A stretch of DNA of 64,000 bases from Eubacteriales bacterium (GTDB lineage Bacteria > Bacillota > Clostridia > Oscillospirales > CAG-272), in assembly GCA_045659245.1 (NCBI GenBank), contig JAZOWN010000037.1, positions 10,655-74,654 of the forward strand, read 5' to 3'. The position numbers were made by a program, and so were the translations under genes. The notes beneath the pieces were generated by a model. It ran no database searches and was not told the origin of the DNA. It saw nothing but the letters and a program-made list of their open reading frames with translations. Positions 10,648-45,856 of this stretch are shown piece after piece. The number at the start of each line of letters is the position of its first letter. Positions within the stretch are counted from its first letter, which is position 1.

Positions 10648-11373
10648 ATGAAAATTACATTTGTAGGCACATCTCACGGAGTTCCGGTGAAAAACAGATT
10701 TTGCGCTTGCATGATGCTCGAGTCGGGCGGCGCCGTATATTTTATCGACGCAGGAGCGCCGATGATAGATTTTATGCTCAAAAACGACAAGAGCATAAAT
10801 GATCTGAGGGCGGTATTTACTACTCACGTCCATAGCGATCATACCATTGGCATAGTACATCTTGCCGACCTTATGAATTGGTACTATAAGGACTCAAGGG
10901 CTGAATTTTTCATTACCGAGCAGGAGCATATTGACGCGACCGCAAGGTGGATATATACGTCGGGAGACGGACATATCGACACGGAGCGCCTGAAGTTCAA
11001 GATACCCGAGGCGGGCGTCGTTTACAGTGACGAAAACATAAGCGTCGAATATATACCCGTCGGCCACATGAAAAACTCTTATGCGATACTTGTCAGAGAG
11101 GGAGAGAAGCGCGTGCTTTTCGGCGGAGACATGTCTCACGGGCTCAGAAAGGGCGATATGCCAAGCGTGATCAAGGAGGATATAGACGGATTTGTCTCGG
11201 AGCTTGCTCATTTTACCATGGACGAGCTTCGTCCGCATCTTGATACGTGTCGGGCAAAGAGAGTGTTCTTTATACACGTAAAGCCTGCGCGCTACGCCGA
11301 TATTGAGAGCGTAAAGGGAAAGTATCCCTTTGAAATACTGACACCCGACGACGGCGACAGCTTTGAAATTTAA
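10648..11373 (+). CDS. MBL-fold metallo-hydrolase (RNase Z-like)
   Basis: GTSHGVP, IDAG and THVHSDH motifs. Confidence 0.85.
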   Translation: MKITFVGTSHGVPVKNRFCACMMLESGGAVYFIDAGAPMIDFMLKNDKSINDLRAVFTTHVHSDHTIGIVHLADLMNWYYKDSRAEFFITEQEHIDATARWIYTSGDGHIDTERLKFKIPEAGVVYSDENISVEYIPVGHMKNSYAILVREGEKRVLFGGDMSHGLRKGDMPSVIKEDIDGFVSELAHFTMDELRPHLDTCRAKRVFFIHVKPARYADIESVKGKYPFEILTPDDGDSFEI

Positions 11374-28795: not shown

Positions 28796-28832
28796 AAAAA
28801 AAGACAGATGCAAATGCATCTGTCTTTTTTTT
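28796..28832 (-). terminator. Terminator downstream of tRNA-Arg
   Basis: A-run, GACAGATGCA stem, TGCATCTGTC, T-run. Confidence 0.8.
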
Positions 28833-28908
28833 GGCACGGCGTAAGGGATTCGAACCCCCGACCTTTTGGTTCGTAGCCAAACACTCTATCCAGCTGAGCT
28901 AACGCCGC
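28832..28908 (-). tRNA. tRNA-Arg (ACG)
   Basis: Reverse complement GCGGCGTTAGCTCAGCTGGATAGAGTGTTTGGCT-ACG-AACCAAAAGGTCGGGGGTTCGAATCCCTTACGCCGTGCCA folds as a cloverleaf and ends in CCA. Confidence 0.97.
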
Positions 28909-29022: not shown

Positions 29023-30057
29023 CTATATCCACCCCAAAATTTCGGAGGATAGGAGTACCGAGGCGTAAATCTCCTTAGGAGCAATCCGTTCCAAAAAATC
29101 GGGGGGCACGGAGCCCTCAAGCTTCAAGGCTATATCCGCGGGCGAGACCTTTTTCTTTGATTCAAGCAGGTATTTTTCAATAAGGCGAGGCTCGCGAGAG
29201 CGGCCGCCCGAAAAGCTCTCGGAGAGTGAGGACACGTCAAGGCAAAAGAAATCGAGAGAGCGCGCTCGTGGGGGATCAAGAAGCAGAATGGGTGTATCAA
29301 TACAAATTCCTTTGGGAATAAAACCGTTGAATTCTCTGTTTTCCGAGTCGAGTCGGCAGAACGCGGAATGAATAAGAGAGATGCAGTCGAGGGCGCGTTC
29401 GGGAGTTTTTATATCCGTGCAAAGCAGGGAGAATCGTCCCCACACCCCTGCTCGGTAGAGCGCCTTTACGCGAGATGAAAAAACCTCCGTATTCTCACCA
29501 AAAGGAATGCTTGCAACCAGCTTTATCCCCGTATGCTTGTCCGCTATCTCACAAAGGTATTCGTATGCGCTCTCCTCGTCGGTAAATTTCTCAAGCTCCT
29601 TGCCGATAACAAGACCGTCACAGCCCTCGGGCGCTGGCTCGGCGGTCGAGAGCACGGAGAGCTTTTTCTTTATTCCGTGAGGGAGTGAGCAGAGAAAGGA
29701 GCGGACCGTTTCTACGTCGGGGTTTACGAAAAGCTTTCCCTCGACGGGAGAAAGAATGGCGACGTCGCAGTGTGAGGGGGCGCTTGCAGGCAAGAGGGGG
29801 CAGGACAGATATATTGCGGGGAGATGACAAAACTCGGCAAGCTGTGCGGCGAAGTGTCTTTGCTCAGGAGTGAGAAATTCGGGCAAAACGATGCCGACCG
29901 CTCCGTCAAGCAATTCTGCGCACAAGTTAGAGTTTCCGTCCCATATAATAATGGCTGCGGCGTCGGCTTTTTTAGAAGAAAGACTTTTTGAGTCGAGCAG
30001 CTTGCCCGTGACGGCGTCTCTTGCGGTGCTTACTCTTTTTCCCGAGTATTCGATCAT
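29023..30057 (-). CDS. Degenerate PEP-utilising enzyme I-like protein
   Basis: RHFAAQLAEFCHLPA, LFVNPD, GICIDTP and LDFFCLD weakly parallel PtsI segments SHTAILARSLGIPA, VxxNP, GxMxExP and VDFFSIGTND. Confidence 0.55.
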   Translation of the reverse strand: MIEYSGKRVSTARDAVTGKLLDSKSLSSKKADAAAIIIWDGNSNLCAELLDGAVGIVLPEFLTPEQRHFAAQLAEFCHLPAIYLSCPLLPASAPSHCDVAILSPVEGKLFVNPDVETVRSFLCSLPHGIKKKLSVLSTAEPAPEGCDGLVIGKELEKFTDEESAYEYLCEIADKHTGIKLVASIPFGENTEVFSSRVKALYRAGVWGRFSLLCTDIKTPERALDCISLIHSAFCRLDSENREFNGFIPKGICIDTPILLLDPPRARSLDFFCLDVSSLSESFSGGRSREPRLIEKYLLESKKKVSPADIALKLEGSVPPDFLERIAPKEIYASVLLSSEILGWI

Positions 30058-30229
30058 AAAACTATCCTCCAATGGGCTTTAAAGCATAGTTTGGTACGAT
30101 CCGGAGCTGTTTATTCGTCGGGTATGATTTCTTTTCACATATGATAAAAACTCAAAAATCCTATTGATTTTAAAAAAGAACTGTGGTATAATCTATAATA
30201 GTATAATATGGCTAAAATAGGAGAGCAAA

Positions 30230-31342
30230 ATGATAATTGCACTTGAAGACGCAAAATATAAGTTGATAGGAATGAGAGCGGATATAGAAGACCTCGGCTC
30301 TGCTTTGCGCATAGATGAGCTTAAGGCTCTTGCAGAGGAGCTTGATGCACAGACGCTTGATCCCGATTTCTGGTCAAATCAGGAGAATTCATCAAAGATA
30401 CTTCAGAAGGTCAAGCAGACTAAGGACACCATTGAGTCCTACGAGGAGCTCAAGGGTCGTCTTGAGGACGCTATCACTCTTGCCGAGATGGCGATAGAGG
30501 AGAATGACGAGGCGTACGTCGAGGAGGTTCAGAGCGAGCTTGCTGAAATCTCTAAAACGGCAGAGAACAAAAGAATAGAAATACTCCTTTCGGGTGAGTA
30601 CGATAAGAATAATGCGATAGTTTCATTCCACCCCGGCGCGGGCGGAACAGAGGCTCAGGACTGGGCGCAGATGCTTTACCGCATGATAACCCGTTGGGCA
30701 GAGCGTCATAACTACAAGTACAAGCTTATAGACTGGCTTGACGGAGACGCGGCGGGAATAAAGAGCGCGACCATTATGGTTGAGGGACTCAACGCATACG
30801 GCTATCTTAAAGCAGAGAACGGCGTACACAGACTTGTCCGTGTATCTCCCTTTGATGCGGCAGGCCGCAGACAGACCTCGTTTGCATCTATCGAGGTCAT
30901 GCCCGAGTTTGATAACATTGACAAGGTCGAGATACGCGACGAGGATATAGAGGTTACTGCGCACCGTTCGAGTGGTGCGGGCGGTCAGCACATCAACAAG
31001 ACCGACTCTGCTATCCGTATCCTGCACAAGCCGACGGGTATCGTCGTAGGCTGTCAGACGGAGCGCTCGCAGCTTCAGAACAAGGAGACAGCGATGAAGA
31101 TGCTCAAGGCAAAGCTTATGGAAATAAAGCTTCGCGAAAGACTTGACACAATTGAGGATATTCAGGGCAACAAGACTAACATCGAGTGGGGCTCGCAGAT
31201 ATGCTCCTACGTGTTCATGCCTTACACATTGGCAAAGGACACGAGAACCGGACACGAGGACGGAAACATTTCCGCTGTCATGGACGGTGAGATAGACGAG
31301 TTTATCAATGCGTACCTTAAAATGAACGCGAAGGCGAACTAA
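30230..31342 (+). CDS. prfB: Peptide chain release factor 2
   Basis: SPF anticodon-mimic, GGQ and GAGGTEAQDW motifs; continuous ORF with no frameshift site. Confidence 0.96.
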   Translation: MIIALEDAKYKLIGMRADIEDLGSALRIDELKALAEELDAQTLDPDFWSNQENSSKILQKVKQTKDTIESYEELKGRLEDAITLAEMAIEENDEAYVEEVQSELAEISKTAENKRIEILLSGEYDKNNAIVSFHPGAGGTEAQDWAQMLYRMITRWAERHNYKYKLIDWLDGDAAGIKSATIMVEGLNAYGYLKAENGVHRLVRVSPFDAAGRRQTSFASIEVMPEFDNIDKVEIRDEDIEVTAHRSSGAGGQHINKTDSAIRILHKPTGIVVGCQTERSQLQNKETAMKMLKAKLMEIKLRERLDTIEDIQGNKTNIEWGSQICSYVFMPYTLAKDTRTGHEDGNISAVMDGEIDEFINAYLKMNAKAN

Positions 31343-31344
31343 CA

Positions 31345-31378
31345 AAAAGCTCGACTGCTATATGGCAGTCGAGCTTTT
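31345..31378 (+). terminator. prfB terminator
   Basis: AAAAGCTCGACTGC-TATATG-GCAGTCGAGCTTTT hairpin. Confidence 0.85.
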
Positions 31379-31546
31379 CTGTATCCTGAACTTCCCAAAA
31401 AGTGGCGGGATTCTAAAAAGGGGAACCAATGAGCAGAAAGCAAGAAATAAATATCGAAGCAATAGAAGATATAGATTCAATTGGCTACCGCAAAAATCAA
31501 GGAAAGTGCAAATTTAAAATTACAGTTAAAGGCTCTTGTAACAAAA

Positions 31547-31688
31547 AGCCTTCCCCAGCGGGGGAAGGTGGCATTGACGAGCCGCGTGCGAGTCAATGAC
31601 GGATGAGGTGTTAAAGAATGAATTGAATATACGACACCTCATCCGTCACTCGCAAAGCTCGTGACACCTTCCCCCACTGGGGAAGGCT
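31547..31688. repeat. 142-bp nested palindromic REP/MITE-like element
   Basis: 24-bp terminal inverted repeats (AGCCTTCCCCAGCGGGGGAAGGTG, 1 mismatch) and an inner 15-bp inverted repeat TGACGGATGAGGTGT/ACACCTCATCCGTCA. Confidence 0.8.
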
Positions 31689-31801
31689 CACGCTGACGGA
31701 GCGCTCTACATAGTCTATATTATCCTATGCCCGAAAATGAAATACCACCCGCATTTGTGGTGCATATCACATTTGCGGGTGGATTTTTAATATTAGTTTT
31801 A

Positions 31802-33031: not shown

Positions 33032-34006
33032 TTACTTCCAAAGCTTTATTTTTCCGTTGTCGTCGTAATGCCAGAAATTGCCCTCGCCCGTGGGCTTGTC
33101 CTTGGAATAGAAAAGGCGCGTCGCCTCTGTCAGCGGAGTGTTCGACGAGTCAATGATCATGCTCGCAAACTGCTCCTGTGTGCCGTGATAATATACGGCT
33201 GACAAAGCGGTACAGCCGGCGAATGCGTTGTTCTCAACGGCCGATGTGCTTGAATGAATGATAAGATACGCCAAGGACGAGCAGTCCTCGAACGCATTTT
33301 CACTTATGAGAGTGAGAGAGGCGGGCAAAATTACGGAACTAAGAGACGAGCAGCCCTTGAAAGCATTAAAGGGAATATTGTCAAGCTCGTTGCCGAATTT
33401 TACCACAGCAAGACCGTTGCAGTTCTCAAACGCGCTCTCGCCGACAAGCGTTAGTGCTCCGTTTACCTCTATTTCAATGTCGGAGCAATCCTTGAATGCG
33501 TTGTTGCCGATAGCGCTTACGCTTTCGGGAAGAACTATTTTTCTCACCGTCTCCTTGTCGATGCTCGCAAAAGCACTATCACCGATGCCGACTACGGGAA
33601 TACCGTTGTTTGAGGACGGAACTACCATTGTTTCAAAGTATTGCTTACAGGTGGTGACGTATCCGTTTTCTATAACGTACACGGCATCTGCCCTCTCCCA
33701 GCTTGCGACCAGGGTCATGCCCCCGGTTACCTTGCGCGAAAAGTTCCAATTGCTTCCGTTATATTGCCACTCCTTGAATACGTATCCGTTTCGCGTTGGG
33801 GACTCGGGGCGGGTCGCATTTTCTCCCTCAAGCACTCTTTGTTCGGGAACGTCGCTTCCGTATGAGGAATTGAACGTGACCTTATAATATTTTGCTTCGG
33901 TCTCGGCTCCTTCGTCCGAGCCGTTGTCGCAGGAGCATATACTAAGAGCTATAAATAGACACAAAAGTGCCGCTAACACCGATCTTAAAACATTCTGTTT
34001 TTTCAT
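33032..34006 (-). CDS. Lipoprotein with InlB B-repeat and BspA-type leucine-rich repeats
   Basis: Signal peptide ending LSICSC; PTRNGYVFKEW B-repeat; repeated IgxxAFxxCxxL units. Confidence 0.85.
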   Translation of the reverse strand: MKKQNVLRSVLAALLCLFIALSICSCDNGSDEGAETEAKYYKVTFNSSYGSDVPEQRVLEGENATRPESPTRNGYVFKEWQYNGSNWNFSRKVTGGMTLVASWERADAVYVIENGYVTTCKQYFETMVVPSSNNGIPVVGIGDSAFASIDKETVRKIVLPESVSAIGNNAFKDCSDIEIEVNGALTLVGESAFENCNGLAVVKFGNELDNIPFNAFKGCSSLSSVILPASLTLISENAFEDCSSLAYLIIHSSTSAVENNAFAGCTALSAVYYHGTQEQFASMIIDSSNTPLTEATRLFYSKDKPTGEGNFWHYDDNGKIKLWK

Positions 34007-34139: not shown

Positions 34140-35918
34140 TTAAAATCCCTGCTTTTTACCGATAAGTCTCCATATAAGTCTGCGTAAAAGGTCAACGGGA
34201 AATACACAGAGGGATATTAAAAATACGCGCCCAAGCTCTACCACGGTAAGGGGAGACGTACGCAAGACGCTTCCGCCGAGATAGACAAAGGCGATCTGAA
34301 CGGCGAGAATAAGTATCATGATCGCGATAAAGGCGGGATTTTTTGAAATTCCCGAAAGCATTTTAAGCCTGTCACAGCGGCAGTTAAAGCAATTGAATAC
34401 GGAGGTAAATATAAACAACGCAAAAAATGCAGTGAGGAGTATAAGCTTGTCGCTTGAATACCTGAAAAGGAGGCAGACGTCGGGAGAGGTCAAAAAGAAA
34501 ATGCAAAGCGCAACGGTAAAGCCTCCGAGCACCAATATCTGATTTATCATGTAGCCGTTTAAAATAGGCTCGTCGCGGCGCTTTGGCTTCTCTTTCATGC
34601 AAAGCACAGATGCCGCCTCTCCTGCAAACGCAAGTCCGCCGAGCGTATCCATAATTATGTTTATCCAAAGCATCTGGACGACGGTGACGGGCGCTTCTAT
34701 ACCTATGAACGGCCCTATCATGGAAACGCCGACGGCGCAAAAATTCATGGTCAGCTGAAGCGTTATAAATTTTCTTATGCTCTTGAAAATATTTCTGCCG
34801 TAGAGTACAGCCTTTACTATTGAGGCAAGGTCGTTGTCGAGTATTATGATATCTCCCGCGTCGCGAGCCACGTCATTTCCGCTGCCCATGGAAAATCCGA
34901 TATCCGCCGCTTTCAGGGCGGGCGCGTCGTTTATTCCGTCGCCCGTCATTCCGACGACAAGATCAAGGGATTGCGCTATGCGGACAAGTCGGCTTTTGTC
35001 TGTCGGCAGGGCGCGTGCTATCACGGCAAGTCGGGGCAGAGCCTTCGCGATCTCTGCGTCACTCATGCGTGTAAGATCAATGCCTTCAAGCACGAGCGTT
35101 CTTTCTCCGTGTATTATTCCCGACTTTCGGGCGATAGCCGAAGCGGTTTCCTTTCCGTCACCCGTTATCATAACAACTCCGATGCCCGCGGTGTGAAGCT
35201 CCGACACGGAGCGGCGCGCTTGCGGACGTAAGGGATCGGCAAGAGATACGGCGCAAACGAGCGTGAGTGGGCACATTCCCCTCGCTGTCGGCATTGCGTC
35301 GGCTCTGGCGATCAACAGCACGCGCTTGCCGTCAGCGCCGAGAGCCGCAAGCTTTTCTTCGAAACGTCTGCGATATGGGGAAAAATCAGAGATAGTGCCG
35401 TCGGGGAGTATGCAGCCTGCGACGTGCGGCAAAAGACGCTCTGGGGCACCCTTTACCAGCACGTAGCGCTCCGCGCGCCCTCGTACCTCTGCCGCCGACA
35501 TTTTTATGTTGCTGTCAAAGGGTAGCTTCGCGCAAACGGTAAGCCTTTCAGCTTCGCGCATGGAAAGCACCGAGGAAAGAAGCGCTCTGTCGGTGGCGTT
35601 GCCGCCGACTACCTGCGAGCGCGTCGCCTCTGACATGGTGTTATAGCGGCAGGAGCTTTCGTAAAGAGCGCCGAGCGTCGGTGAGCGCGAAAAGAGCGCG
35701 GCGGGAGAGATTACCGAGGTGGCATCGGGCATTACTATGCAGTCAAGGCGCATTTTTCCCTCTGTAAGGGTTCCCGTTTTGTCCGTAAAGAGAAGGTTCA
35801 TGCTGCCTGCGGCTTCGATGCCCACGGGCTTGCGGACGAGCACGTTGTCGCGCACCATTCGCTTGATATTTGACGATAAGACCACCGCGATCATCATTGG
35901 TAGCCCCTCGGGAGCGAT
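34140..35918 (-). pseudogene. 3' half of a P-type (Ca2+-transporting, type II) ATPase interrupted by the prophage
   Basis: Reads (IA)PEGLP-MMIAVV...DKTGTLT, KGAPE, MITGD, TGDGIND and QMLWINIIMD; lacks the N-terminal A-domain and TM1-3; upstream in-frame codons are TAA TAG at the integrase end. Confidence 0.9.
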
Positions 35919-35950
35919 CTATTATAACTGATTAAGCGATGCTATTAAGT
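35905..35950. other. Prophage attachment junction (att)
   Basis: ATPase homology breaks immediately upstream of the PEGL codons and abuts the integrase stop; exact crossover is unknown. Confidence 0.7.
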
Positions 35951-37301
35951 CACCTGTCTCGGTGACTACTACTTTCTTAATGACTCGTGACCAAAATGCT
36001 TTTTTAGCTTCGGCATCAAGCGTTATATACGTTTCACGAAATCCCTTGAGGAAGCTTGTATCTATTGGCTTTTGTTCTTCTACTCTTTCGTCGAGCTCTG
36101 CTTCTTTAAGAAGCGAAGAGAGGGCCGTATAGTCTCTCTCGTACATCTCGCGAGTGAGCAGATCGTTTAAGTATAGATCCTTAAGCTTCTCTATTTTTGC
36201 AATGATTTTCGGCACGTCGATGCTTTTTTTAATACCGCGCTTTTGTTTGGACTTTAACGAGATATTATATTCCTCAACGATAGTCTTTAAATTCTCACAG
36301 ATCCATTCCTCTAAAGTATCCTGATTTATTTGCCTTGACATATCGCACGTTCTCATTGTGTGTGCCGGACAGCGGTAATATATGTATGTATGTTTTTCAC
36401 CGTTTGGTTTGGAATTAGTGCAAGCATACGTTGTCATTCTTCTTCCGCAGCACCCACAGAAAACTAAGCCTGTGAAAAGATATACTCTGTCTGATCGAGT
36501 CCCATCATATCGAGCGGACCGAACGTCGATTATCTGGTTTGCGAGGTCAAACACATTTTTGTCTATAATTTTCGGGCACCAATCCTTAATACCGTAAGCT
36601 TCTCCAATATACCACGTGTTTGAAAGCATACGCTTCATGGACTTAACGTCTATATTTCGTTTATGCTTTTCAAGGATATACCGGGACGTAGCTTTCATAG
36701 ATCTACAATCTATATACTTATCAAACATGCTCCGAACTATCTCTGCATCAGACTCGTTTATTACCACGCGCTTGTTTTCGATTCTGTAACCCAACGTAGT
36801 GCTGCCGGAAATAACTCGCCCTTCTTTGACCATGTTCTGAAATACAAATTTAATTCTCTCCGAGGTTCGGTCGGATTCGTCCTGGGCGATTGCCAGCTTG
36901 ATGTTAAGGGCAAGCCTGCCGTTCGCTGTCGTTGTATCGTAATCCTCCTCGGTGGCTATCCACTGTACTCTGTATTTGTCAAGGATAGCTTGTACCTCAT
37001 AGTAATCAGCAATGTTTCTGAACCATCTATCGAGCTTGATAAACAGCACCACGTCTATTTTCTTTGCTTTTACGTCCTCAAGCATTCTCATGAATGCCGC
37101 TCGGCGGGTATAGCGCTTACGCGCGGAGATACCCTCGTCAACGTATATATCTACTATGCTTAAGCCGTTCTCAGTGGCGTACTGTATTAGCCGCTCCTTT
37201 TGCGCGTCCAAAGAAACGCCGTGCATGGCTTGTTCCTCGGTAGATACGCGGGCGTACAGCGCGGCCCGTTTTATACCGTTATCAATTCGTTTGGTTTGCA
37301 T
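35922..37301 (-). CDS. Large serine recombinase (integrase)
   Basis: YARVSTEEQ, DEGISA, KLDRWFR, ESDRTSERI motifs and a zinc ribbon (CGCCG...YYRC). Confidence 0.95.
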   Translation of the reverse strand: MQTKRIDNGIKRAALYARVSTEEQAMHGVSLDAQKERLIQYATENGLSIVDIYVDEGISARKRYTRRAAFMRMLEDVKAKKIDVVLFIKLDRWFRNIADYYEVQAILDKYRVQWIATEEDYDTTTANGRLALNIKLAIAQDESDRTSERIKFVFQNMVKEGRVISGSTTLGYRIENKRVVINESDAEIVRSMFDKYIDCRSMKATSRYILEKHKRNIDVKSMKRMLSNTWYIGEAYGIKDWCPKIIDKNVFDLANQIIDVRSARYDGTRSDRVYLFTGLVFCGCCGRRMTTYACTNSKPNGEKHTYIYYRCPAHTMRTCDMSRQINQDTLEEWICENLKTIVEEYNISLKSKQKRGIKKSIDVPKIIAKIEKLKDLYLNDLLTREMYERDYTALSSLLKEAELDERVEEQKPIDTSFLKGFRETYITLDAEAKKAFWSRVIKKVVVTETGDLIASLNQL

Positions 37302-38898: not shown

Positions 38899-39372
38899 TT
38901 ACATAAGATCTTCGTCGGTTTCGGGGGCATTCTGTATCTTTGCAAACGCCTCTTTATCCATCTTTATATACGCATCACGCGTTTTGTTGTTGGAATGAGC
39001 TGCGGTATACAAATATACTTGTCCGTCTTCTTCTACTCCGAGAAGATGACATACGGCAGGTTGAAATTCAGGGTGGGAACGGTATGCATCAATAACAGAT
39101 AGCTCATGCTCCGTAAGTTTTGGAGCGTTGACGGTATTATTTTCATTTACTGTTATTCCAAAAAAATATCCTATTGGAACATTACAAGCAGAGGCAATTT
39201 TTATTAATGTGGATACTTTTACCTGTGTTGGCTTACCGGTGCGAAAATCAAAGCCTTTTTCTATGTTATCAATCGTAGTATGGCTAACATCGCATTTAAT
39301 TGCAAATTCTCTCAAAGACAGATTTGCCCTCAATTGTTTAACTTTTAAACCAATATACTCTTCTAAATTCAT
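38899..39372 (-). CDS. CI-like phage repressor (XRE HTH)
   Basis: LSLREFAIKCDVSHTTIDNIEKG HTH; divergent from cro. Confidence 0.85.
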   Translation of the reverse strand: MNLEEYIGLKVKQLRANLSLREFAIKCDVSHTTIDNIEKGFDFRTGKPTQVKVSTLIKIASACNVPIGYFFGITVNENNTVNAPKLTEHELSVIDAYRSHPEFQPAVCHLLGVEEDGQVYLYTAAHSNNKTRDAYIKMDKEAFAKIQNAPETDEDLM

Positions 39373-39404
39373 AAACTTCTCCAAATGTAGTGTTGACTAA
39401 ACAT

Positions 39405-39433
39405 ATTGTATCATATAAACAACTAACAGTCAA
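39405..39433 (-). promoter_or_regulatory. Leftward sigma-A promoter for the repressor
   Basis: TTGACT-17 nt-TACAAT with extended TG on the minus strand. Confidence 0.7.
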
Positions 39434-39465
39434 GAATTTTGTTAAAATTCACGTGTTGTTTATGC

Positions 39466-39494
39466 TTGACAGGCTCAATGCGATGTGATATAAT
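39466..39494 (+). promoter_or_regulatory. Rightward sigma-A promoter for cro and the early operon
   Basis: Perfect TTGACA-17 nt-TATAAT with extended TG. Confidence 0.85.
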
Positions 39495-39528
39495 TTAGTA
39501 AACCAAAAACAACGAAGGAGGATAGGTG

Positions 39529-39729
39529 ATGAAAAACTGTATTAAAATTCTTAGAGCTGAGAGAAGTCTGACGCAGGAGGAATTAGCCAAAAAGGCTGGA
39601 ATTTCTCGTCCAACTCTTGCTATGATAGAAAATGAGAGAGCTGAACCGGACGGAAAAACAATAGCATCTTTGGTTAAAGCGTTAAATGTCCCTGCAACGC
39701 AAATTTTTTTTGATTTAGATGTAGTTTAA
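39529..39729 (+). CDS. Cro-like XRE HTH protein
   Basis: LTQEELAKKAGISRPTLAMIEN; AAGGAGG RBS. Confidence 0.88.
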   Translation: MKNCIKILRAERSLTQEELAKKAGISRPTLAMIENERAEPDGKTIASLVKALNVPATQIFFDLDVV

Positions 39730-39760: not shown

Positions 39761-40288
39761 ATGAAGAAAATCAAAAAAATCAACGAGGAAGTATTCAAAA
39801 TAGGCAAGTATAAGTTCATCAAATTTACAGGTGACGACGGAAACATTATAGGCGTTCTTAAGGATAGTCTTTGCGACATGCGTTTTGGCGATAACAACGA
39901 TTTTTCCAAGAGTGATATCCTCAAGAAACTTAACGAGGAATTTTTGCCCGAAATTGAGAGCATTGTGGGCGCTGAAAATGTTCTTGAATTTGAAACAGAT
40001 TTGATATCACTCGACGGCTCAAAGAAACACGGCACAATGAAATCCAAAGTTTCTCTGCCTACATTCGATTTTTACAGAGCCAACAGAGCAATATTTGCAA
40101 AGTACAAGCTTCAAGATTGGTGGTGGCTGGTTACTCCTTATTCTACAAGCGAGTATGTAAATGATTGGTGGGTATGTTGCGTCTCGCCGCGCGGTGATAT
40201 CTGCTACTACAGCTGCAGCAATGACTACTTCGGCGTTCGCCCGTTTTTACACTTTTCATCTTCTATCTTTGACTCTTTGGAGATGTAA
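39761..40288 (+). CDS. DGR target protein 1 (DUF6273-like / CLec-like C-terminus)
   Basis: WWWLVTP...CCVSPRG...GVRP; contains VR1. Confidence 0.88.
   Translation: MKKIKKINEEVFKIGKYKFIKFTGDDGNIIGVLKDSLCDMRFGDNNDFSKSDILKKLNEEFLPEIESIVGAENVLEFETDLISLDGSKKHGTMKSKVSLPTFDFYRANRAIFAKYKLQDWWWLVTPYSTSEYVNDWWVCCVSPRGDICYYSCSNDYFGVRPFLHFSSSIFDSLEM
40177..40247 (+). repeat. DGR variable repeat VR1
   Basis: 71-nt ungapped match to TR 44644-44714 with 12 mismatches, all opposite TR adenines. Confidence 0.95.
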
Positions 40289-40364
40289 TGACGAGTGCCG
40301 CGTTGAAGAAGAAAACATTGAGCTAAAATAAAAATCAACAAATAACACATAAAAGGAGGAAAAA

Positions 40365-40559
40365 ATGATTAACGGAGAACTTATCAAAATACTTATGAGG
40401 TCAAAGGGGATAACGGCACGACAGCTTGCCGCTAAGGTGGGAGTCAGCGAACCCATGATGTCGAATATCCTGGGAGGCTTGAGAGAGCCGAACGTACACA
40501 CGCTGGTCCGCATCGCCAAAGAACTCGGCTACACCGTGGACGAGCTTATCGCAAAGTGA
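40365..40559 (+). CDS. XRE HTH protein
   Basis: ITARQLAAKVGVSEPMMSNILGG...TVDEL. Confidence 0.85.
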   Translation: MINGELIKILMRSKGITARQLAAKVGVSEPMMSNILGGLREPNVHTLVRIAKELGYTVDELIAK

Positions 40560-40560
40560 G

Positions 40561-41136
40561 GTGAGAGGTATGAGATTAACGTGCTTATGTATTATCACGC
40601 TCGCAGTAAATATAATACTGCTGTCGTTGCTTTATGTAATTATATACGTAAGACTGCTATCAATCAGCAAAAAACTAAATTCAGATCCGCCTGAATTCTT
40701 CGTGCCAATAAGCCGCAAGGATTTTCTCATTCGCCTTAAGGGACAGGAGAATGATTTCCCCTCGACGGATGAGGATCTAATTCGTACCTTGGCGTGGCTT
40801 GCCGCAGACAACCGTGACGGAGGTGATAGTTTTACCTCCGAGGCGTGTGACAAGGCTGCTGCCAGATTACGTGAGCTGACAGATCCTTGCGGAGGATGGA
40901 TCTCTACCGAGTGGGAGATGCCTCCGGAGGATGACACTGTTCTTGCGGTAGTGAACGGTAAGCTTGGTAACATTAAGTTTATAAATTCTATTGAGACGGC
41001 ACAGTGGTGCGATGACGAAGGCTGGTTGCTCTGTTTTAACGTTGAAGCCGGAAGCAATGATCATATAGAAATTAAATGGTGGCGACCTCTGCCCGAGGCA
41101 CCGGAGAAAATCAATGCTGATAAGAATGATAAATAA
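40561..41136 (+). CDS. Phage protein with N-terminal TM segment and DUF551-like C-terminus
   Basis: WISTEWEMP...WWRPLPEAP pattern. Confidence 0.65.
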   Translation: MRGMRLTCLCIITLAVNIILLSLLYVIIYVRLLSISKKLNSDPPEFFVPISRKDFLIRLKGQENDFPSTDEDLIRTLAWLAADNRDGGDSFTSEACDKAAARLRELTDPCGGWISTEWEMPPEDDTVLAVVNGKLGNIKFINSIETAQWCDDEGWLLCFNVEAGSNDHIEIKWWRPLPEAPEKINADKNDK

Positions 41137-41209
41137 TCAGGTATTTGGACAAGCTCACGGATACATATTATTTAATACGTTCAATTTTGTACGAAAGGGG
41201 CTTGATTAA

Positions 41210-41383
41210 ATGAACAAGGGAAAAGTAATATTTACGAATGAGGTAAACGTTCGCTACATATTTGAGGTAATGTGTGATCTGCTGACAAGGCAAAGCGGCG
41301 GAGAACTCATATATGAAATAGCGGAATTTAGCAAAAAGGAAGTAAAAAATGAAAAAAACGAAGCAACTGAAAAATCAATGTGA
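41210..41383 (+). CDS. Small hypothetical phage protein
   Basis: 57-aa ORF (MNKGKVIFTNEV...) with AAGGGG RBS. Confidence 0.5.
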   Translation: MNKGKVIFTNEVNVRYIFEVMCDLLTRQSGGELIYEIAEFSKKEVKNEKNEATEKSM

Positions 41384-41663
41384 AAATATAGTCACTGATC
41401 TTCAAGAATCAGGCATTTCTTCTTCTGATGCCGAGCGTGCGGCGCCGGTACTTATAGATAAGGGCTGGCGCAGAGTTTTAAATGGCACGTGGATAAAAGA
41501 CGAGACCTACAAGGGTACAAATAAAGTTGTTTACCGTTGTTCCGTGTGCGGGCATTGGCAGACACAAAAGAAGTGGAATACGAACGATGGACGGTTTCAT
41601 ATGAACTATTGCCCGTTTTGTGGTAGCACTATGAAAACCGCCTCTGAGCGCAAGGAAAAATAA
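41349..41663 (+). CDS. Phage zinc-ribbon protein
   Basis: GTWI...CSVCG...YCPFCG. Confidence 0.7.
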   Translation: MKKTKQLKNQCENIVTDLQESGISSSDAERAAPVLIDKGWRRVLNGTWIKDETYKGTNKVVYRCSVCGHWQTQKKWNTNDGRFHMNYCPFCGSTMKTASERKEK

Positions 41664-41682
41664 AAAAAAGAGGGACATTAAA

Positions 41683-41829
41683 ATGATAAAACTGCTTATC
41701 CGAATACTTTTGGGCCTATTAGTCCTCGCTTGGCTTTTCGCTGCGGTACATAATCTTTGGGATATAGGAAAAAAAGAAGGAATAGTTAAAGGAAATTACG
41801 AAGATACGGAGGAAGAAGAAAATGAATAA
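41683..41829 (+). CDS. Small membrane peptide
   Basis: 48-aa ORF MIKLLIRILLGLLVLAWLFAAV... with RBS; overlaps the parB start. Confidence 0.5.
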   Translation: MIKLLIRILLGLLVLAWLFAAVHNLWDIGKKEGIVKGNYEDTEEEENE

Positions 41830-43372
41830 TGCAAATGCTCAAAAAGAGCTGGTTTACATAAGCGTGGACAAGCTTTTGCCGCACCCCAACAATCCAAGAA
41901 AGGAGCTTGGAGACCTTACGGAGCTATCCGAGAGTATTAAGGCGAAGGGAGTCATGCAGAACCTTACCGTTGTTCCCGCAGAGGGCGGATGCTTTACTAT
42001 AATCATCGGACACCGCCGCTGCGCCGCTGCGATACTTGCGGGAGTGGACAAGCTGCCCTGCGTAGTAGTAGAGATGTCAGAGAAGGAGCAGCTTTCTACT
42101 ATGCTCCTGGAGAATATTCAACGCTCCGACCTAACCTTATATGAGCAGGCAAAAGGCTTTCAGCTGATGATGGAGCTGGGGGAGAGTATATCGGGGTTGA
42201 CCGAAAAGACCGGCTTTTCCGAAACTACTATTCGCCGCCGTCTCAAGATGGCAGAGCTTGACGGTAAAAGACTTAAGAAGCTTTCAGAAGAACGTCAGCT
42301 CTCCATTGGGGATTTTGACAAGCTCGCCAGTATAGAGGACGTTAAGAAGCGTAATGAGCTTCTTGAAGTGATGGGAACTAATAACTTTGAATATCGCCTT
42401 AAGGTGGCTCTTGCAGAACAGGCGAGGGCTAAGGTAAAGCCTTTGCTCATGAAGATACTCGCTGAAATTGGTGCCAAAGAGATGAAAAACTCATCTGACC
42501 GTTGGAACGGAAAGTATGAATGTATAGAGACGCTACATCTTTTGAAGCTTACTCCTGAGAAAAAGGTAAAGATACCCAAAAAATACAGTGGCAAGAAGCT
42601 GCTTTACTACGAGATCGCGCATAACAGTACGTGTGAAATATGGGGAGAGACCGAAAAGGAGAAAAAGAAGAAGCGCCCTCAAGCTGAGATAGACAGAGAT
42701 AAATATATAGCGGATACAAGAGCAGAGCTTGAGGCGAGCACACGTCTGGCGTATATTCTTAGATACAATTTCGTTACCTCTCTTAATCTTACCAAAGCAA
42801 ACGCCTCTGCGGTGCTTGAAGGCGCTATGCTGGCGCTCATGGCGAGGCAGACGGGAGCTTCCAGACCTCCGTTAGGGAATAATTTCTATTCCAATCACTT
42901 AGATATACCGGCTACGGATTTTGAAGGTGAAGCTAACCGCCTTGACGTTATACGCAAAGGGTACGATAGGTGCGTGAATGAGAAAATCGGCGCGCCGCAG
43001 ATCATGATTTTATACGGCGCATTTGCTGACGACGAAAAGAATAGCTTTTACAGCGATTACTCCGGAATGTTTCCGCGCCACAAGAGAAATCAGATGCTGG
43101 AATACCTCTATGAGTGGCTTGTTTCTATGGGCTATGAGATGTCTGACGATGAGAAAATGCTGCTTGACGGCACGCATCATTTGTTCATAGATAAGGATGC
43201 GAAAAAAATGAGTAACTATTTTTATAAAATAACGGAGAAGGCAAGCGGAGACGTATTCTACGTTGAGACGGACGCGGATCACGAGCCAGCGCAGCTGCTA
43301 TCTGTTCTCGGCTTTGACGACGCATACGTGGCGCGGCGAACCTCAAGAGAAGAAATTGAGAGGGAGTTGTGA
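41822..43372 (+). CDS. ParB/RepB/Spo0J-family protein
   Basis: PHPNNPR, ELSESIKAKGVMQNL, GHRR, ENIQRSDL motifs and HTH. Confidence 0.88.
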   Translation: MNNANAQKELVYISVDKLLPHPNNPRKELGDLTELSESIKAKGVMQNLTVVPAEGGCFTIIIGHRRCAAAILAGVDKLPCVVVEMSEKEQLSTMLLENIQRSDLTLYEQAKGFQLMMELGESISGLTEKTGFSETTIRRRLKMAELDGKRLKKLSEERQLSIGDFDKLASIEDVKKRNELLEVMGTNNFEYRLKVALAEQARAKVKPLLMKILAEIGAKEMKNSSDRWNGKYECIETLHLLKLTPEKKVKIPKKYSGKKLLYYEIAHNSTCEIWGETEKEKKKKRPQAEIDRDKYIADTRAELEASTRLAYILRYNFVTSLNLTKANASAVLEGAMLALMARQTGASRPPLGNNFYSNHLDIPATDFEGEANRLDVIRKGYDRCVNEKIGAPQIMILYGAFADDEKNSFYSDYSGMFPRHKRNQMLEYLYEWLVSMGYEMSDDEKMLLDGTHHLFIDKDAKKMSNYFYKITEKASGDVFYVETDADHEPAQLLSVLGFDDAYVARRTSREEIEREL

Positions 43373-43373
43373 T

Positions 43374-43628
43374 ATGTTTAAGGGAAAAAAGCAAGAAAAA
43401 ATAATAACGCTTGGTCAAAGTATTCGCGCTATCAGAAAGAAACGGGGACTTACACAGCAACAGCTGGCAGAAAAAACGGGCTTGCAGCAATCCTTGATAG
43501 CTCGTTGGGAAAGTGATTCTCATACTCCGACTACGGCACTCCTCGTATGTGTTGCAGATGCGCTTGAGGTTAGCCTGGATGAGCTGGTAGGACGGAAGAT
43601 ATTATCAAAAAAATTTTCGGAGGAATAA
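43374..43628 (+). CDS. XRE HTH protein
   Basis: RKKRGLTQQQLAEKTGLQQSLIARWE...SLDELVG. Confidence 0.88.
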   Translation: MFKGKKQEKIITLGQSIRAIRKKRGLTQQQLAEKTGLQQSLIARWESDSHTPTTALLVCVADALEVSLDELVGRKILSKKFSEE

Positions 43629-43631
43629 AAT

Positions 43632-44246
43632 ATGAATGACAATTACTTATGCATAGGTGGGCTGAGGCTCCCACTTACAGAAGAACAGATTACCCTAATA
43701 AGAAGCAGCTTGCCGCAGATAAAGCTTGCGGATGTGAGGGTGGGAGAAGCCTTTAAAATAGGTGAATACGAGTTTATAGTTCTTGAGCACGAGGAGGGCT
43801 TTACAAAGGTGCTGCTTAAGGACATACTTTGTAAGTCCGCTTTCAGTGAAAAAGACTGTGATTTCAAGAACAGTAAAGTGCTCAGGATTTTGCAGGATTT
43901 TGAAAACAAAATATCTGATATTGTAGGAGCGGAGAACATACTCGCTCATACTATTGATCTTACATCAAATGATGGTCTTAAGGACTACGGTCACACCGTT
44001 GGAAAGGTTTCTTTGCTCTCCTGCGATATGGTGCGAAAGTACGTTGATATCCTGGATAAATACAAAGTGGAGTCGTATTGGTGGCTTGTGACGCCATGGA
44101 GTACGCCTGCACACGGATATAATGAATACGTTTGTTGCGTCTCGCCGCGCGGTTTTATCAACTACGGCGACTACAACATTGACGACGGCGGCGTTCGCCC
44201 GTTTTTTCACTTTTCATCTTCTATCTTTGTCTCTTTGGAAACGTAA
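43632..44246 (+). CDS. DGR target protein 2 (paralogue of target 1)
   Basis: YWWLVTP...CCVSPRG...GVRP; contains VR2; its TAA overlaps the avd ATG. Confidence 0.9.
   Translation: MNDNYLCIGGLRLPLTEEQITLIRSSLPQIKLADVRVGEAFKIGEYEFIVLEHEEGFTKVLLKDILCKSAFSEKDCDFKNSKVLRILQDFENKISDIVGAENILAHTIDLTSNDGLKDYGHTVGKVSLLSCDMVRKYVDILDKYKVESYWWLVTPWSTPAHGYNEYVCCVSPRGFINYGDYNIDDGGVRPFFHFSSSIFVSLET
44135..44205 (+). repeat. DGR variable repeat VR2
   Basis: 71-nt ungapped match to TR with 11 mismatches, all opposite TR adenines. Confidence 0.95.
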
Positions 44247-44614
44247 TGGCGGATAATGATATGAAAGTGATCGTCAAGGCAAAAGAATTGGCGATACACT
44301 CATTTAAGCTTACCTCTAACAACAATAGATATCCAAAAAAATATAGGCATTCACTGGCTGATAGAATCCAATTGAAAGCGCTCGATATATATGATACGTT
44401 ACTTGAAGCGAATAGGATCAACAATGCTGCTTTCCCCGCCATGCGTAGAGAAACTATTTCAAGAGCAGTATTGTATTGTGATCAGATGTTGTTTTACATA
44501 GAACTTTCTATGGGTCTTACTGATCAGAGCATGGAGTCGATACAGTATTGGAGCAAAATGGTTACAGATGTTAAATATCTATCGCTTGCATGGAGAAAAA
44601 AAGAAACCAAATAA
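44246..44614 (+). CDS. avd: DGR accessory variability determinant (Avd-like four-helix bundle)
   Basis: 122 aa, basic, YPKKYRHSLADRI...EAN...W pattern; located between target and TR. Confidence 0.85.
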   Translation: MADNDMKVIVKAKELAIHSFKLTSNNNRYPKKYRHSLADRIQLKALDIYDTLLEANRINNAAFPAMRRETISRAVLYCDQMLFYIELSMGLTDQSMESIQYWSKMVTDVKYLSLAWRKKETK

Positions 44615-44620
44615 AAAATC

Positions 44621-44781
44621 GGGTCATGCGTTGTATTTTTTCTTTGCGTCTCGCCGCGCGGTAATATCAACAACAACAACTACAACAATGACAACAACGG
44701 CGTTCGCCCGTATTGGTGGAATGTCAGACAGAGTAGGCATAAGCCGAAATCAGCACCCCACATCAAAAGAACGCATGACCC
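44621..44781 (+). ncRNA. Putative DGR template RNA (TR plus flanks)
   Basis: Bounded by a 12-bp perfect inverted repeat GGGTCATGCGTT / AACGCATGACCC. Confidence 0.65.
44644..44714 (+). repeat. DGR template repeat (TR)
   Basis: TTGCGTCTCGCCGCGCGGT-AATATCAACAACAACAACTACAACAATGACAACAAC-GGCGTTCGCCCGTATT; AAC-rich and intergenic between avd and RT. Confidence 0.95.
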
Positions 44782-44818
44782 TTCTCTGAAAGAGATAAAC
44801 AAAAGGAGGCTATGCAGC

Positions 44819-45856
44819 ATGACCGACTTTGAAAAGGTGATAGCTTTTGAAAATATGTACCGTGCGTACCGCAAAGCAAAATGCGGAAAGGGATATAAGA
44901 AAAGCGCGGCACGTTTTAATATAATGGCTCTTGAGGGTATAAACAGGCTTGTTGAGCAGTTGGAATCCAAAGAGTACAGGGTATCGGAGTATAACGAGTT
45001 TAAGGTATACGAGCCCAAAGAGCGCATAATACAAACTGCATCGTTCAAGGACAAGGTGGTGCAGCATAGCCTATGTGATAACGTGATACTTCCTCGCTTG
45101 AGCGAAGTGTTTATATACGACAACTGCGCGGGGCAGAAAGGTAAGGGGACGCTTTTCGGACTTCAACGTCTCGAAGAACATATGACGACCTTCTGGCAAA
45201 AACATAGACTTGAAGGATATATCCTTAAATGTGATATATCAAAATTTTTCTACAATATTTCTCATGAACAATTAAAGGACATAGTTGAATATCATTTTTC
45301 GTATGATACAGATATCTGTTGGCTTTGCAGTATTTTCATTGATAGCACGGCCGGAAAAGGGATCCCACTTGGTAATCAGATAAATCAAGGCTTTGCGCTA
45401 ATGTATCTTGACGGTATGGACAAGCTCATTACAGGAGAATTGGGAATCGAGTATTACGGCAGATACATGGACGACTTTTATTTAATGCACCCCGACAAAG
45501 ATTATTTGAAATATTGTTTGGAGGTAATCACCGCATATTTAGATACCCTTGAGCTTACTCTGAACGGTAAAACACAAATCTTTCCAATCAAGAATGGTGT
45601 GAGCTATCTTGGTTTCCACTCATACATAACTGAAAATGGTAAGGTGATTCGCAAGCTGGACAATAAGAAAAAGAGGGCTGCACAGCGCAAATACCGCCGT
45701 ATGGCGAAGCTGGTTTCAGAAGGAAAATTATCATCCGAGAAGCTCCGAGATTCTTTTTATGCTTGGAAAAATCATGCATCGCATGGAAATTGCAAGAAAA
45801 TTTCCGAAAGAATGGAGAGTATGATAAAAGAAATCTTGAATCGAGGTAAAATATGA
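44819..45856 (+). CDS. DGR reverse transcriptase
   Basis: 345 aa; EPKER, FKDKVVQ, KGKGT, LKCDISKFF, GIPLGNQINQ, RYMDD and YLGF motifs; no maturase or endonuclease domain. Confidence 0.95.
   Translation: MTDFEKVIAFENMYRAYRKAKCGKGYKKSAARFNIMALEGINRLVEQLESKEYRVSEYNEFKVYEPKERIIQTASFKDKVVQHSLCDNVILPRLSEVFIYDNCAGQKGKGTLFGLQRLEEHMTTFWQKHRLEGYILKCDISKFFYNISHEQLKDIVEYHFSYDTDICWLCSIFIDSTAGKGIPLGNQINQGFALMYLDGMDKLITGELGIEYYGRYMDDFYLMHPDKDYLKYCLEVITAYLDTLELTLNGKTQIFPIKNGVSYLGFHSYITENGKVIRKLDNKKKRAAQRKYRRMAKLVSEGKLSSEKLRDSFYAWKNHASHGNCKKISERMESMIKEILNRGKI

Follow-up and report, generated by a model that had tools for sequence, protein, structure and literature searches.

The stretch of DNA analysed here (64,000 nt, hereafter the window; forward-strand positions 10,655 to 74,654 of contig JAZOWN010000037.1, Eubacteriales assembly GCA_045659245.1) carries, between positions 39,761 and 45,856, the parts of a diversity-generating retroelement (DGR), comprising one template repeat (TR), two variable repeats (VR1 and VR2) at the ends of two separate target genes, an avd accessory gene and a reverse transcriptase (RT) gene, all on the forward strand. 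VR1 and VR2 start 4467 nt and 509 nt upstream of the TR, respectively, and both distances and the order of the elements agree with a sequence-only reading of the same DNA, in which the arrangement target 2 (VR2)-avd-TR-RT, with VR1 some 4.4 kb upstream, had been proposed. We consider it very likely that the locus is a canonical Avd-type DGR, situated among the early genes of a temperate phage that is integrated in a small ruminant-gut Clostridia genome.

Repeats and genes of the cassette

A repeat search of the window recovered three ungapped 71-nt copies, at 40177-40247 (VR1), 44135-44205 (VR2) and 44644-44714 (TR). Within this frame a scripted count gives 12/71 mismatches to the TR for VR1 and 11/71 for VR2, each at one of the 22 TR adenines, and the hypergeometric probability of such an adenine-only pattern is 5.1e-8 (VR1) and 2.8e-7 (VR2). 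The counts of 12 and 11, their restriction to adenines and the absence of indels had all been stated in the sequence-only reading and are borne out in the 71-nt frame. The extent of the TR had to be amended: the final mismatch, at 44712 (A to T in both VRs), is located one base beyond the TR/VR homology, where the shared CCCGT is followed by ATTGG in the TR and by TTTT in the VRs, and the true repeat thus comprises 68 nt (44644-44711, +) with 21 adenines. In the 65-nt core (44646-44710), eleven adenine sites are changed in VR1 (40177-40244, +; variable span 40196-40230) and ten in VR2 (44135-44202, +; variable span 44154-44188), with 0/44 non-adenine sites changed in either. VR1 and VR2 carry different adenine substitutions, and each would thus have been rewritten separately from the one TR. 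The twelve variable codons of the TR (nine AAY codons plus ATC, TAC and GAC) permit 2.46e12 protein variants per target, and a stop codon is impossible. Translations of the VRs and the TR codons reproduce the variable-segment peptides given earlier, namely DICYYSCSNDYF for VR1, FINYGDYNIDDG for VR2 and NINNNNYNNDNN for the TR.

The GC-rich 3' end GGCGTTCGCCCG is identical in TR, VR1 and VR2, and the sequence diverges one base past it. The 3' flank of VR1 (40245-40293, +), which is non-homologous to the TR and encodes the protein tail, and its counterpart behind VR2 (44203-44251, +) are 91 % identical to each other, unlike the TR flank. A shared GC-rich 3' end with a differing flank fits the distinction between the initiation of mutagenic homing (IMH) element and its TR-side counterpart (IMH*), which makes the shared end a candidate for IMH function and the sequence following VR1 a candidate IMH-type flank. 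A flanking 16-mer occurs in three copies in the window, as against 0.01 expected, and a flanking 12-mer likewise in three, as against 0.40 expected, with one of 100 shuffles reaching three. When any base was allowed at the TR adenines, no VR copies for this TR other than VR1 and VR2 were found across the entire assembly (66 contigs, 1.66 Mb; 96 % complete), and the search for additional copies in prophage and host that had been proposed with the first reading therefore yields exactly three copies. The exact VR/TR pattern had no match in the viral contig collection searched.

Both targets are small, leaderless DUF6273 proteins, with no hydrophobic segment found in either. Target gene 1 (39761-40288, +; 175 aa) matches the Pfam model for DUF6273 (PF19789) at 1.5e-5 and 25.4 bits (cut-off 23.5), while target gene 2 (43632-44246, +; 204 aa) matches it at 1.4e-4 and 22.2 bits, slightly below the same cut-off, and both match phrog_9958 (2.3e-31 and 6.5e-34, respectively). 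Homologues of target 1 number 592. Two target types can be distinguished in the family of related cassettes described below, with type A proteins of about 203 aa starting with MKNYI and ending in the tail GVRPFCILNSNIFVSR, and type B proteins of about 177 aa with the tail GVRPFLKFVSSIFVS.E. Target 1, with VR1 at its C-terminus, belongs to type B. Target 2 is composite, combining a type-A body with a type-B-like tail which includes VR2 at the C-terminus and is 91 % identical to the tail of target 1; the 150 nt upstream of VR1 and VR2 are only 64 % identical to each other. A profile of the targets retrieved nothing significant from PDB, the best matches not being credible, and showed no significant similarity to Mtd, which is the target of the DGR in Bordetella phage BPP-1. 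The window protein is absent from the ESM Atlas, where a stored target homologue returned DUF6273 clusters only and no structure. The target-family profile also gives a weak match (E 0.17) to residues 213-260 of PDB chain 9qa6_A, an IgA protease, over a WLxTP ... GVRP-like stretch, and these residues may represent a solved DUF6273-like domain.

The RT gene (44819-45856, +) encodes a 345-aa protein with a YMDD motif, which matches RVT_1 (6.3e-14) and phrog_1423 (4.5e-103). Its best PDB match is 8ub7_A (1.4e-31, compared with 9.3e-11 for a group II RT), a chain that was established to be the BPP-1 RT, Brt, by a search with the annotated brt product (4.5e-230), and the window RT and Brt share 28 % identity over 330 aa (E 4e-38). 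The nearest phage RT is that of nd12 (49 %), followed by those of nd4 and Faecalibacterium phages. In a maximum-likelihood tree of 20 rows with long branches, in which retron, Abi and UG RTs were not among the rows, the window RT falls inside a family clade of 12 members (100/98), whose sister is the DGR RT of nd12 (100/98), and on the Brt side (93/88), with three RTs from group II introns of related genomes set apart (98/94). The YMDD motif occurs in 12/12 family RTs. The NCBIfam retron model reaches 37.8 bits against a cut-off of 235, and the retron, Drt, Abi and UG models all score far under their cut-offs. The protein accordingly belongs to the DGR clade of RTs, and its catalytic YxDD is intact. 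Clustering with group II intron or retron RTs had been named as an outcome contrary to the sequence-only reading; the tree shows no clustering with group II intron RTs, and the retron comparison gave only the low model score.

The avd gene (44246-44614, +) encodes a 122-aa accessory protein with a match to phrog_3206, annotated as 'Avd protein of DGR' (8.4e-14), and its position between target and TR is that expected of the accessory gene of a DGR. Among the family orthologues of this protein, 12/12 are matched by the NCBIfam model DivGenRetAVD (best 2.2e-11) and 10/12 by Pfam bAvd.

RNA elements and related cassettes

In an alignment of 13 distinct sequences, extending from the end of avd to the start of the RT gene, the TR is enclosed by a 12-bp long-range helix formed by the upstream strand GGGTCATGCGTT (44621-44632, +) and the downstream strand AACGCATGACCC (44770-44781, +). 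Compensatory changes affect five of its pairs, and the paired cells amount to 98.7 %; the covariation seen is reached by 0/500 shuffles, and in slid controls the pairing is 31-48 %. The downstream strand forms part of the spacer (Sp) RNA region between TR and RT (44712-44818, +), which also includes a hairpin GGC-AUAA-GCC (44736-44745, +), a second hairpin directly after the 3' strand of the duplex (44783-44795, +), an A-rich run (44796-44804, +) and a Shine-Dalgarno site ahead of the RT gene (44805-44809, +). A small hairpin right after the 3' duplex strand, followed by UAAACAAA, is found in 13/13 sequences, with three different stems and four GNRA loops. Taken alone, the window has an unexceptional overall TR-Sp fold (z -1.33), the support being limited to the alignment-based duplex, and the invariant part of the spacer is uninformative on structure because the loci were retrieved with a 20-mer from the spacer.

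The available portions of the structural report on the BPP-1 ribonucleoprotein (bioRxiv 10.1101/2023.10.23.563531) describe an avd:Sp 'cPRT Stop' duplex, a stem-loop and A-minor adenosines, which were also predicted in 207 other DGRs, and the duplex, hairpin and adenosines of the window match these three elements. Phage nd12 has a 12-bp duplex of its own around the TR, of different sequence (read by eye). The spacer furthermore resembles the Rfam motif RT-2 (RF03077), in that RT-2 is located just 5' of an RT gene and has the core AGUAG-hairpin-GAAAUCAG in common with the window. The match at 44719-44840 scores 31.7 bits, under the gathering score of 40, and the spacer was not assigned to RT-2; relatives score between 28.4 and 34.1 bits in 4/8 other sources searched. 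The accessible text of the report on RT motifs places these near RT genes, possibly as parts of retroelements including DGRs (PMC5737381).

A second DGR of the same family is encoded on contig C47 of the same assembly (29333-31697; 71 % DNA identity, with 75 % amino acid identity between the RTs), in another prophage that encodes a tyrosine integrase and a terminase. It comprises two tandem targets (A and B), avd, a 62-nt TR and an RT, and its VRs carry 14 and 10 adenine changes, with no non-adenine changes. The TRs of the two cassettes are distinct at several non-adenine sites and have lengths 3 nt apart, every VR fits its own TR only, and there is no sign of cross-writing between the two DGRs. 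A spacer 20-mer identical in both cassettes was used for the family search and retrieved four viral contigs, one metagenome contig and nine metagenome-assembled genome (MAG) contigs, giving 16 loci when the window and C47 are included. The titles of the MAGs with family loci name Clostridia, Oscillospiraceae, Ruminococcus and Acutalibacteraceae; some of these MAGs derive from sheep colon and goat caecum. The cassette DNA of the window itself was found in 0/60 related genomes searched, and no near relative occurs in the phage collection, where the eight matching records align to no more than 5 % of the query, at 60-80 % identity in every case.

The 16 loci contain 27 ungapped VRs with 285 adenine versus three non-adenine mismatches. 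Two VRs are present in twelve loci (about -1050 and -510 from the TR), one in three loci and none in L010, whose single target has a VR one codon longer than the TR and was hence missed by the ungapped scan. Four loci (L008, L009, L011 and L019) are mutually 100 % identical over 2.1-3.1 kb, both VRs included, and were counted once, leaving 13 distinct loci. Among these, the changed sites amount to 235/451 adenine versus 3/931 non-adenine positions, a non-adenine count that is biased low since family VRs were defined by at most three non-adenine mismatches and the VR of L010 was missed. The substitution spectrum of the same 13 loci consists of 126 changes from A to G, 97 from A to T and 12 from A to C.

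The usual order of elements in the family is targetA-targetB-avd-TR-RT. The layout of the window, where the B gene is located 3.3 kb upstream of target 2 and genes for HTH (helix-turn-helix), DUF551 and ParB-like proteins intervene, occurs in none of the other 15 loci. On this distribution, the tandem order is taken as the ancestral layout of the family and that of the window as a rearranged derivative. The single target of L020 (1329-1943) is a clear chimera when compared with L017, a two-target relative at 85 % identity. Its upstream part is 84.7 % identical to the A gene of L017 (66 % to B) and its tail 100 % identical to the L017 B gene (71 % to A), as would follow from a deletion through recombination of one VR with the other. 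Taken together, the composite target 2 and the L020 chimera suggest that recombination between directly repeated VRs fuses or reshuffles targets. Flanking-gene synteny across the loci is absent, except for ParB-like genes near two cassettes. One further IMG/VR contig (L024; 2049-3420) encodes tandem A and B targets and an avd cut after about 45 codons, with no TR or RT.

Variation, activity and alternative explanations

Variation among homologues of target 1 is concentrated in the VR. In an alignment of 62 close homologues (62 of the first 63, with P0052 left out by a length filter), identity is 79.4 % outside the twelve VR residues and 19.9 % inside them, with entropies of 0.60 and 2.84 bits, respectively. 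For example, P0001 is 92.6 % identical to target 1 outside the VR, with 3/12 residues equal inside it. The homologue P0022 has the VR NINNNNYNNSN, close to the unmutated template, as if hardly any adenine had been misread. At the DNA level, the family cassettes are only 75-85 % identical. At non-adenine columns that vary between lineages, the VRs of the 13 distinct loci equal their own TR in 219/220 cases, compared with a proportion of 0.58 for the TRs of other lineages; the VRs thus track lineage-specific changes of the TR, and TR and VRs evolve in concert.

Four metagenome runs from ruminant or animal gut were compared as assembled contigs with a depth of 2-7, most of them from relatives at 85-95 % identity. 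One contig of run X2, 245 nt long, covers 40230-40440 with two differences, reaching from the last part of target 1 to within the HTH gene that follows, and its preceding 30 nt, aligned by hand, show 12 differences to the window VR1 and eight to the TR, all at TR adenines; this contig has a depth of 3.6 and may be chimeric in assembly or derive from a related phage. Runs X2 and X3 have A at 44169, where the window has G; this VR2 position is opposite a TR adenine. The variation between strains whose absence had been named as an argument against activity was thus encountered, as VR-concentrated diversity among protein homologues and as a different VR1 in one metagenome contig. The DGR has probably been active recently on both targets. 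The earlier claim of current or recent independent activity on both is supported indirectly by the differences between the two VRs, the concerted evolution of VRs and TR, the VR-concentrated diversity of homologues and the different VR1 of run X2, with the activity itself deduced from assembled sequence and not seen at read level.

By analogy with BPP-1 we infer the following course of diversification. A transcript from the end of avd through TR and spacer would fold, the duplex 44621-44632/44770-44781 closing round the TR. A complex of RT and Avd would copy the 68-nt TR to cDNA, misreading its 21 adenines, and the cDNA would replace the homologous 3' segment of either of two genes, with the GGCGTTCGCCCG end and the differing flank fixing the 3' boundary. 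Each event would then rewrite twelve C-terminal codons of one of two paralogous single-domain DUF6273 proteins.

Several observations weigh against a canonical, active DGR. The window Avd matches DivGenRetAVD at only 1.7e-5 and 25 bits, below the cut-off of 80, lacks any Pfam match at E<=1 and shows no detectable similarity to the BPP-1 Avd (hhalign probability 0.4), and an Avd profile search of PDB found nothing. The 'SQ' in the IGSLTSQ motif of Brt is a signature of DGR RTs. Opposite this motif the window RT has LGNQINQ, in which Ser is replaced by Asn and Gln is kept, and the same holds for 12/12 intact family RTs. A hairpin or cruciform 3' of the VRs, as found in BPP-1, is not evident in the window, the DNA folds having z-scores of +0.83, -0.85, +1.36 and +0.42 (the first two for the regions downstream of VR1 and VR2). 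Neither target is close to the structural genes, and the lectin-like fold of the targets is taken from the literature. To these must be added the bias in the family count of non-adenine changes and the nature of the metagenome contigs, both set out above.

The alternative that survives best, though unlikely, is that the DGR is a silent relic, which diversified both targets once and whose homing in this lysogen has since ceased or is restricted to lytic growth. The evidence of activity does come from contigs and not from reads, and the four clonal assemblies of one relative (L008, L009, L011 and L019) have identical VRs, with no change between them. Relatives also show decay, since L015 encodes an RT of 141 aa, L021 an Avd of 66 aa and L024 the truncated avd with neither TR nor RT; together with the lengthened VR of L010, the first two are signs of decay or slippage in the family, although they could also be assembly errors. 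Several two-target Faecalibacterium prophages gave no read-level signal, as far as the available portions of that report go (PMC11792537). In the window, however, RT, Avd, TR and RNA elements are all intact, and both VRs equal the TR at 44/44 non-adenine sites, while relatives have diverged by 15-25 % in adjacent sequence. Furthermore, another sample has a different VR1 beside a 99 %-identical flank, which again favours a DGR that has remained functional.

It is very improbable that VR1 was not written by the window TR at all, and that target 1 instead arrived by recombination from another phage, already diversified by the DGR of that phage. Such an origin would be in keeping with the 4.4-kb distance of target 1, a layout without parallel among the other 15 loci, and also with the mosaic flanking genes and the recombination at VRs evident in the L020 chimera. 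Against it, VR1 equals the window TR at all 44 non-adenine sites, and the combination of GCGCGG with GGCGTTCGCCCG is found in no other lineage's TR. The TR of the resident second DGR, which has another length and other bases at several of these sites, does not match VR1, and the tails behind VR1 and VR2 are 91 % identical. That the repeats are ordinary duplications or products of gene conversion, with an adenine bias due to chance or selection and an unrelated group II intron, retron or defence RT nearby, is scarcely credible, for although among NCBIfam models the RT scores best with group_II_RT_mat (84.5 bits, where the cut-off is 300), the hypergeometric probabilities are 5e-8 and 3e-7, the same pattern recurs across 16 loci in 27 VRs, the RT falls with those of DGRs, and an Avd gene and the TR-flanking RNA duplex are present.

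The function of the targets is most likely that of hypervariable ligand-binding proteins of the phage. More specifically, the A and B pair, which is written by one TR and located in an early operon beside the lysis-lysogeny switch, might act as a two-chain hypervariable binder early in infection or in the lysogen, and not as a tail receptor-binding protein, for example by recognising changing components of host defence or of rival phages. This is rather unlikely, but room is left for it because the pair has been kept despite the rearrangement in the window, in other lineages it has collapsed into A/B chimeras, and two DGRs coexist in a 1.66-Mb genome with no cross-writing.

Known DGRs and the prophage setting

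The cassette resembles the BPP-1 DGR (mtd-avd-TR-brt) in its adenine-only substitutions, in an RT that is homologous over its full length, and in the RNA duplex that the spacer forms with sequence upstream of the TR, with a stem-loop and adenosines after it. It differs in the length of the TR (68 nt versus 134 nt in BPP-1), in having two targets and not one, and in the nature of these targets, which are single-domain proteins of 175-204 aa with neither the N-terminal domains of Mtd nor detectable similarity to it. The Avd likewise has no detectable similarity to that of BPP-1, no hairpin follows the VRs, and the cassette is located among early genes and not at the tail-fibre end.

DGRs with two targets and with non-adjacent targets, including those that write DUF6273 proteins, have already been published, as the accessible parts of four reports make clear (PMC5758913, PMC10743442, PMC11792537, bioRxiv 10.1101/2024.10.15.618418). 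According to these parts, two targets occur in 50/372 DGRs and non-adjacent targets in 45/372, including phage DGRs with targets in the same prophage (Wu et al., PMC5758913); DUF6273 is a C-type-lectin-like DGR target, and phages nd4 and nd12 have DGRs writing two DUF6273 proteins (PMC10743442), as do the Faecalibacterium prophages Lelie and CP11 (PMC11792537); and in Toutatisvirus the second DUF6273 target lies 17,480 nt from the TR, with some relatives keeping the targets without a DGR (bioRxiv 10.1101/2024.10.15.618418). The window cassette shares with nd12/nd4, Toutatisvirus, Lelie and CP11 the use of one TR for two DUF6273 targets, and a small single-domain second target with a C-terminal VR that can be far from the RT. 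The likeness to nd12 extends to the RT, which is the nearest among phages at 49 %, and to spacer motifs common to both (compared by eye), and that to Toutatisvirus to DGR-less relatives that keep both targets, L024 being such a relic. In all of these phages, one target is a large 'tentaclin' or Hoc-like protein with immunoglobulin (Ig) domains. In the window family, by contrast, both targets are small paralogues (A and B), usually in tandem directly 5' of avd, with no Ig-domain partner, a short TR and a position among early genes. Target 1 is only 28-33 % identical to the small targets of the nd12/nd4, Toutatisvirus, Lelie and CP11 phages. No description of the tandem A/B arrangement was found in the literature on DUF6273 and DGRs, a search outside of which lie the supplements of PMC5758913 and bioRxiv 10.1101/2023.10.23.563531, where members may be listed. 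The locus thus adds a clean, fully parsed short-TR, two-target DGR of ruminant-gut Clostridia prophages and leaves the known picture of DGRs unchanged. For DGR annotation, it could be helpful in suggesting that paired small DUF6273 targets are ancestral and that VR-VR recombination reshuffles or fuses targets, and in showing that the flanking-duplex RNA covaries as the structural work on BPP-1 predicts.

The prophage that holds the cassette starts at about 35.9 kb, at a serine recombinase gene (35922-37301), and has split a host P-type cation ATPase gene within its conserved PEGLP motif, between PEG and LP. The C-terminal half of the ATPase is encoded at 34140-35897 (-), and the N-terminal half, a 325-aa open frame with an E1-E2_ATPase domain, on contig C16 (24541-25518, +), where other sequence follows. 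The contig of the window (C37) ends within a 1128-aa phage open reading frame. With the ATPase halves on separate contigs and the end of C37 inside a phage gene, the prophage spans at least 37 kb and is split across contigs. The sequence-only reading had spoken of a complete prophage, which applies to the DGR parts, all present and intact; completeness of the prophage as a whole is plausible only, given that its right junction is on C16 and C37 ends in a phage gene. The 1128-aa frame (76.0-79.4 kb on C37, past the window; 1980-5363 in L022) has LPD3, MuF_C and Toxofilin-like domain matches, which give it the look of a polyvalent protein of phages.

The DGR is followed downstream by genes for terminase, portal and major head proteins. 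On its upstream side, a promoter-like site TTGACA-17-TATAAT with TG (39466-39494, +; 12/12 consensus) lies ahead of a cro-like HTH gene (39526-39729, +) and of target 1, which is directly downstream of the latter and hence the second gene after the site. A repressor-like HTH gene (38899-39384, -) has a divergent promoter-like site, the pair spanning 39405-39494. The total of promoter-like sites in the region is not above that of shuffles, so that the site at 39466-39494 represents a consensus match only. The host part of the window includes a BspA-type leucine-rich-repeat gene (33032-34006, -) and a tRNA-Arg(ACG) (28832-28908, -).

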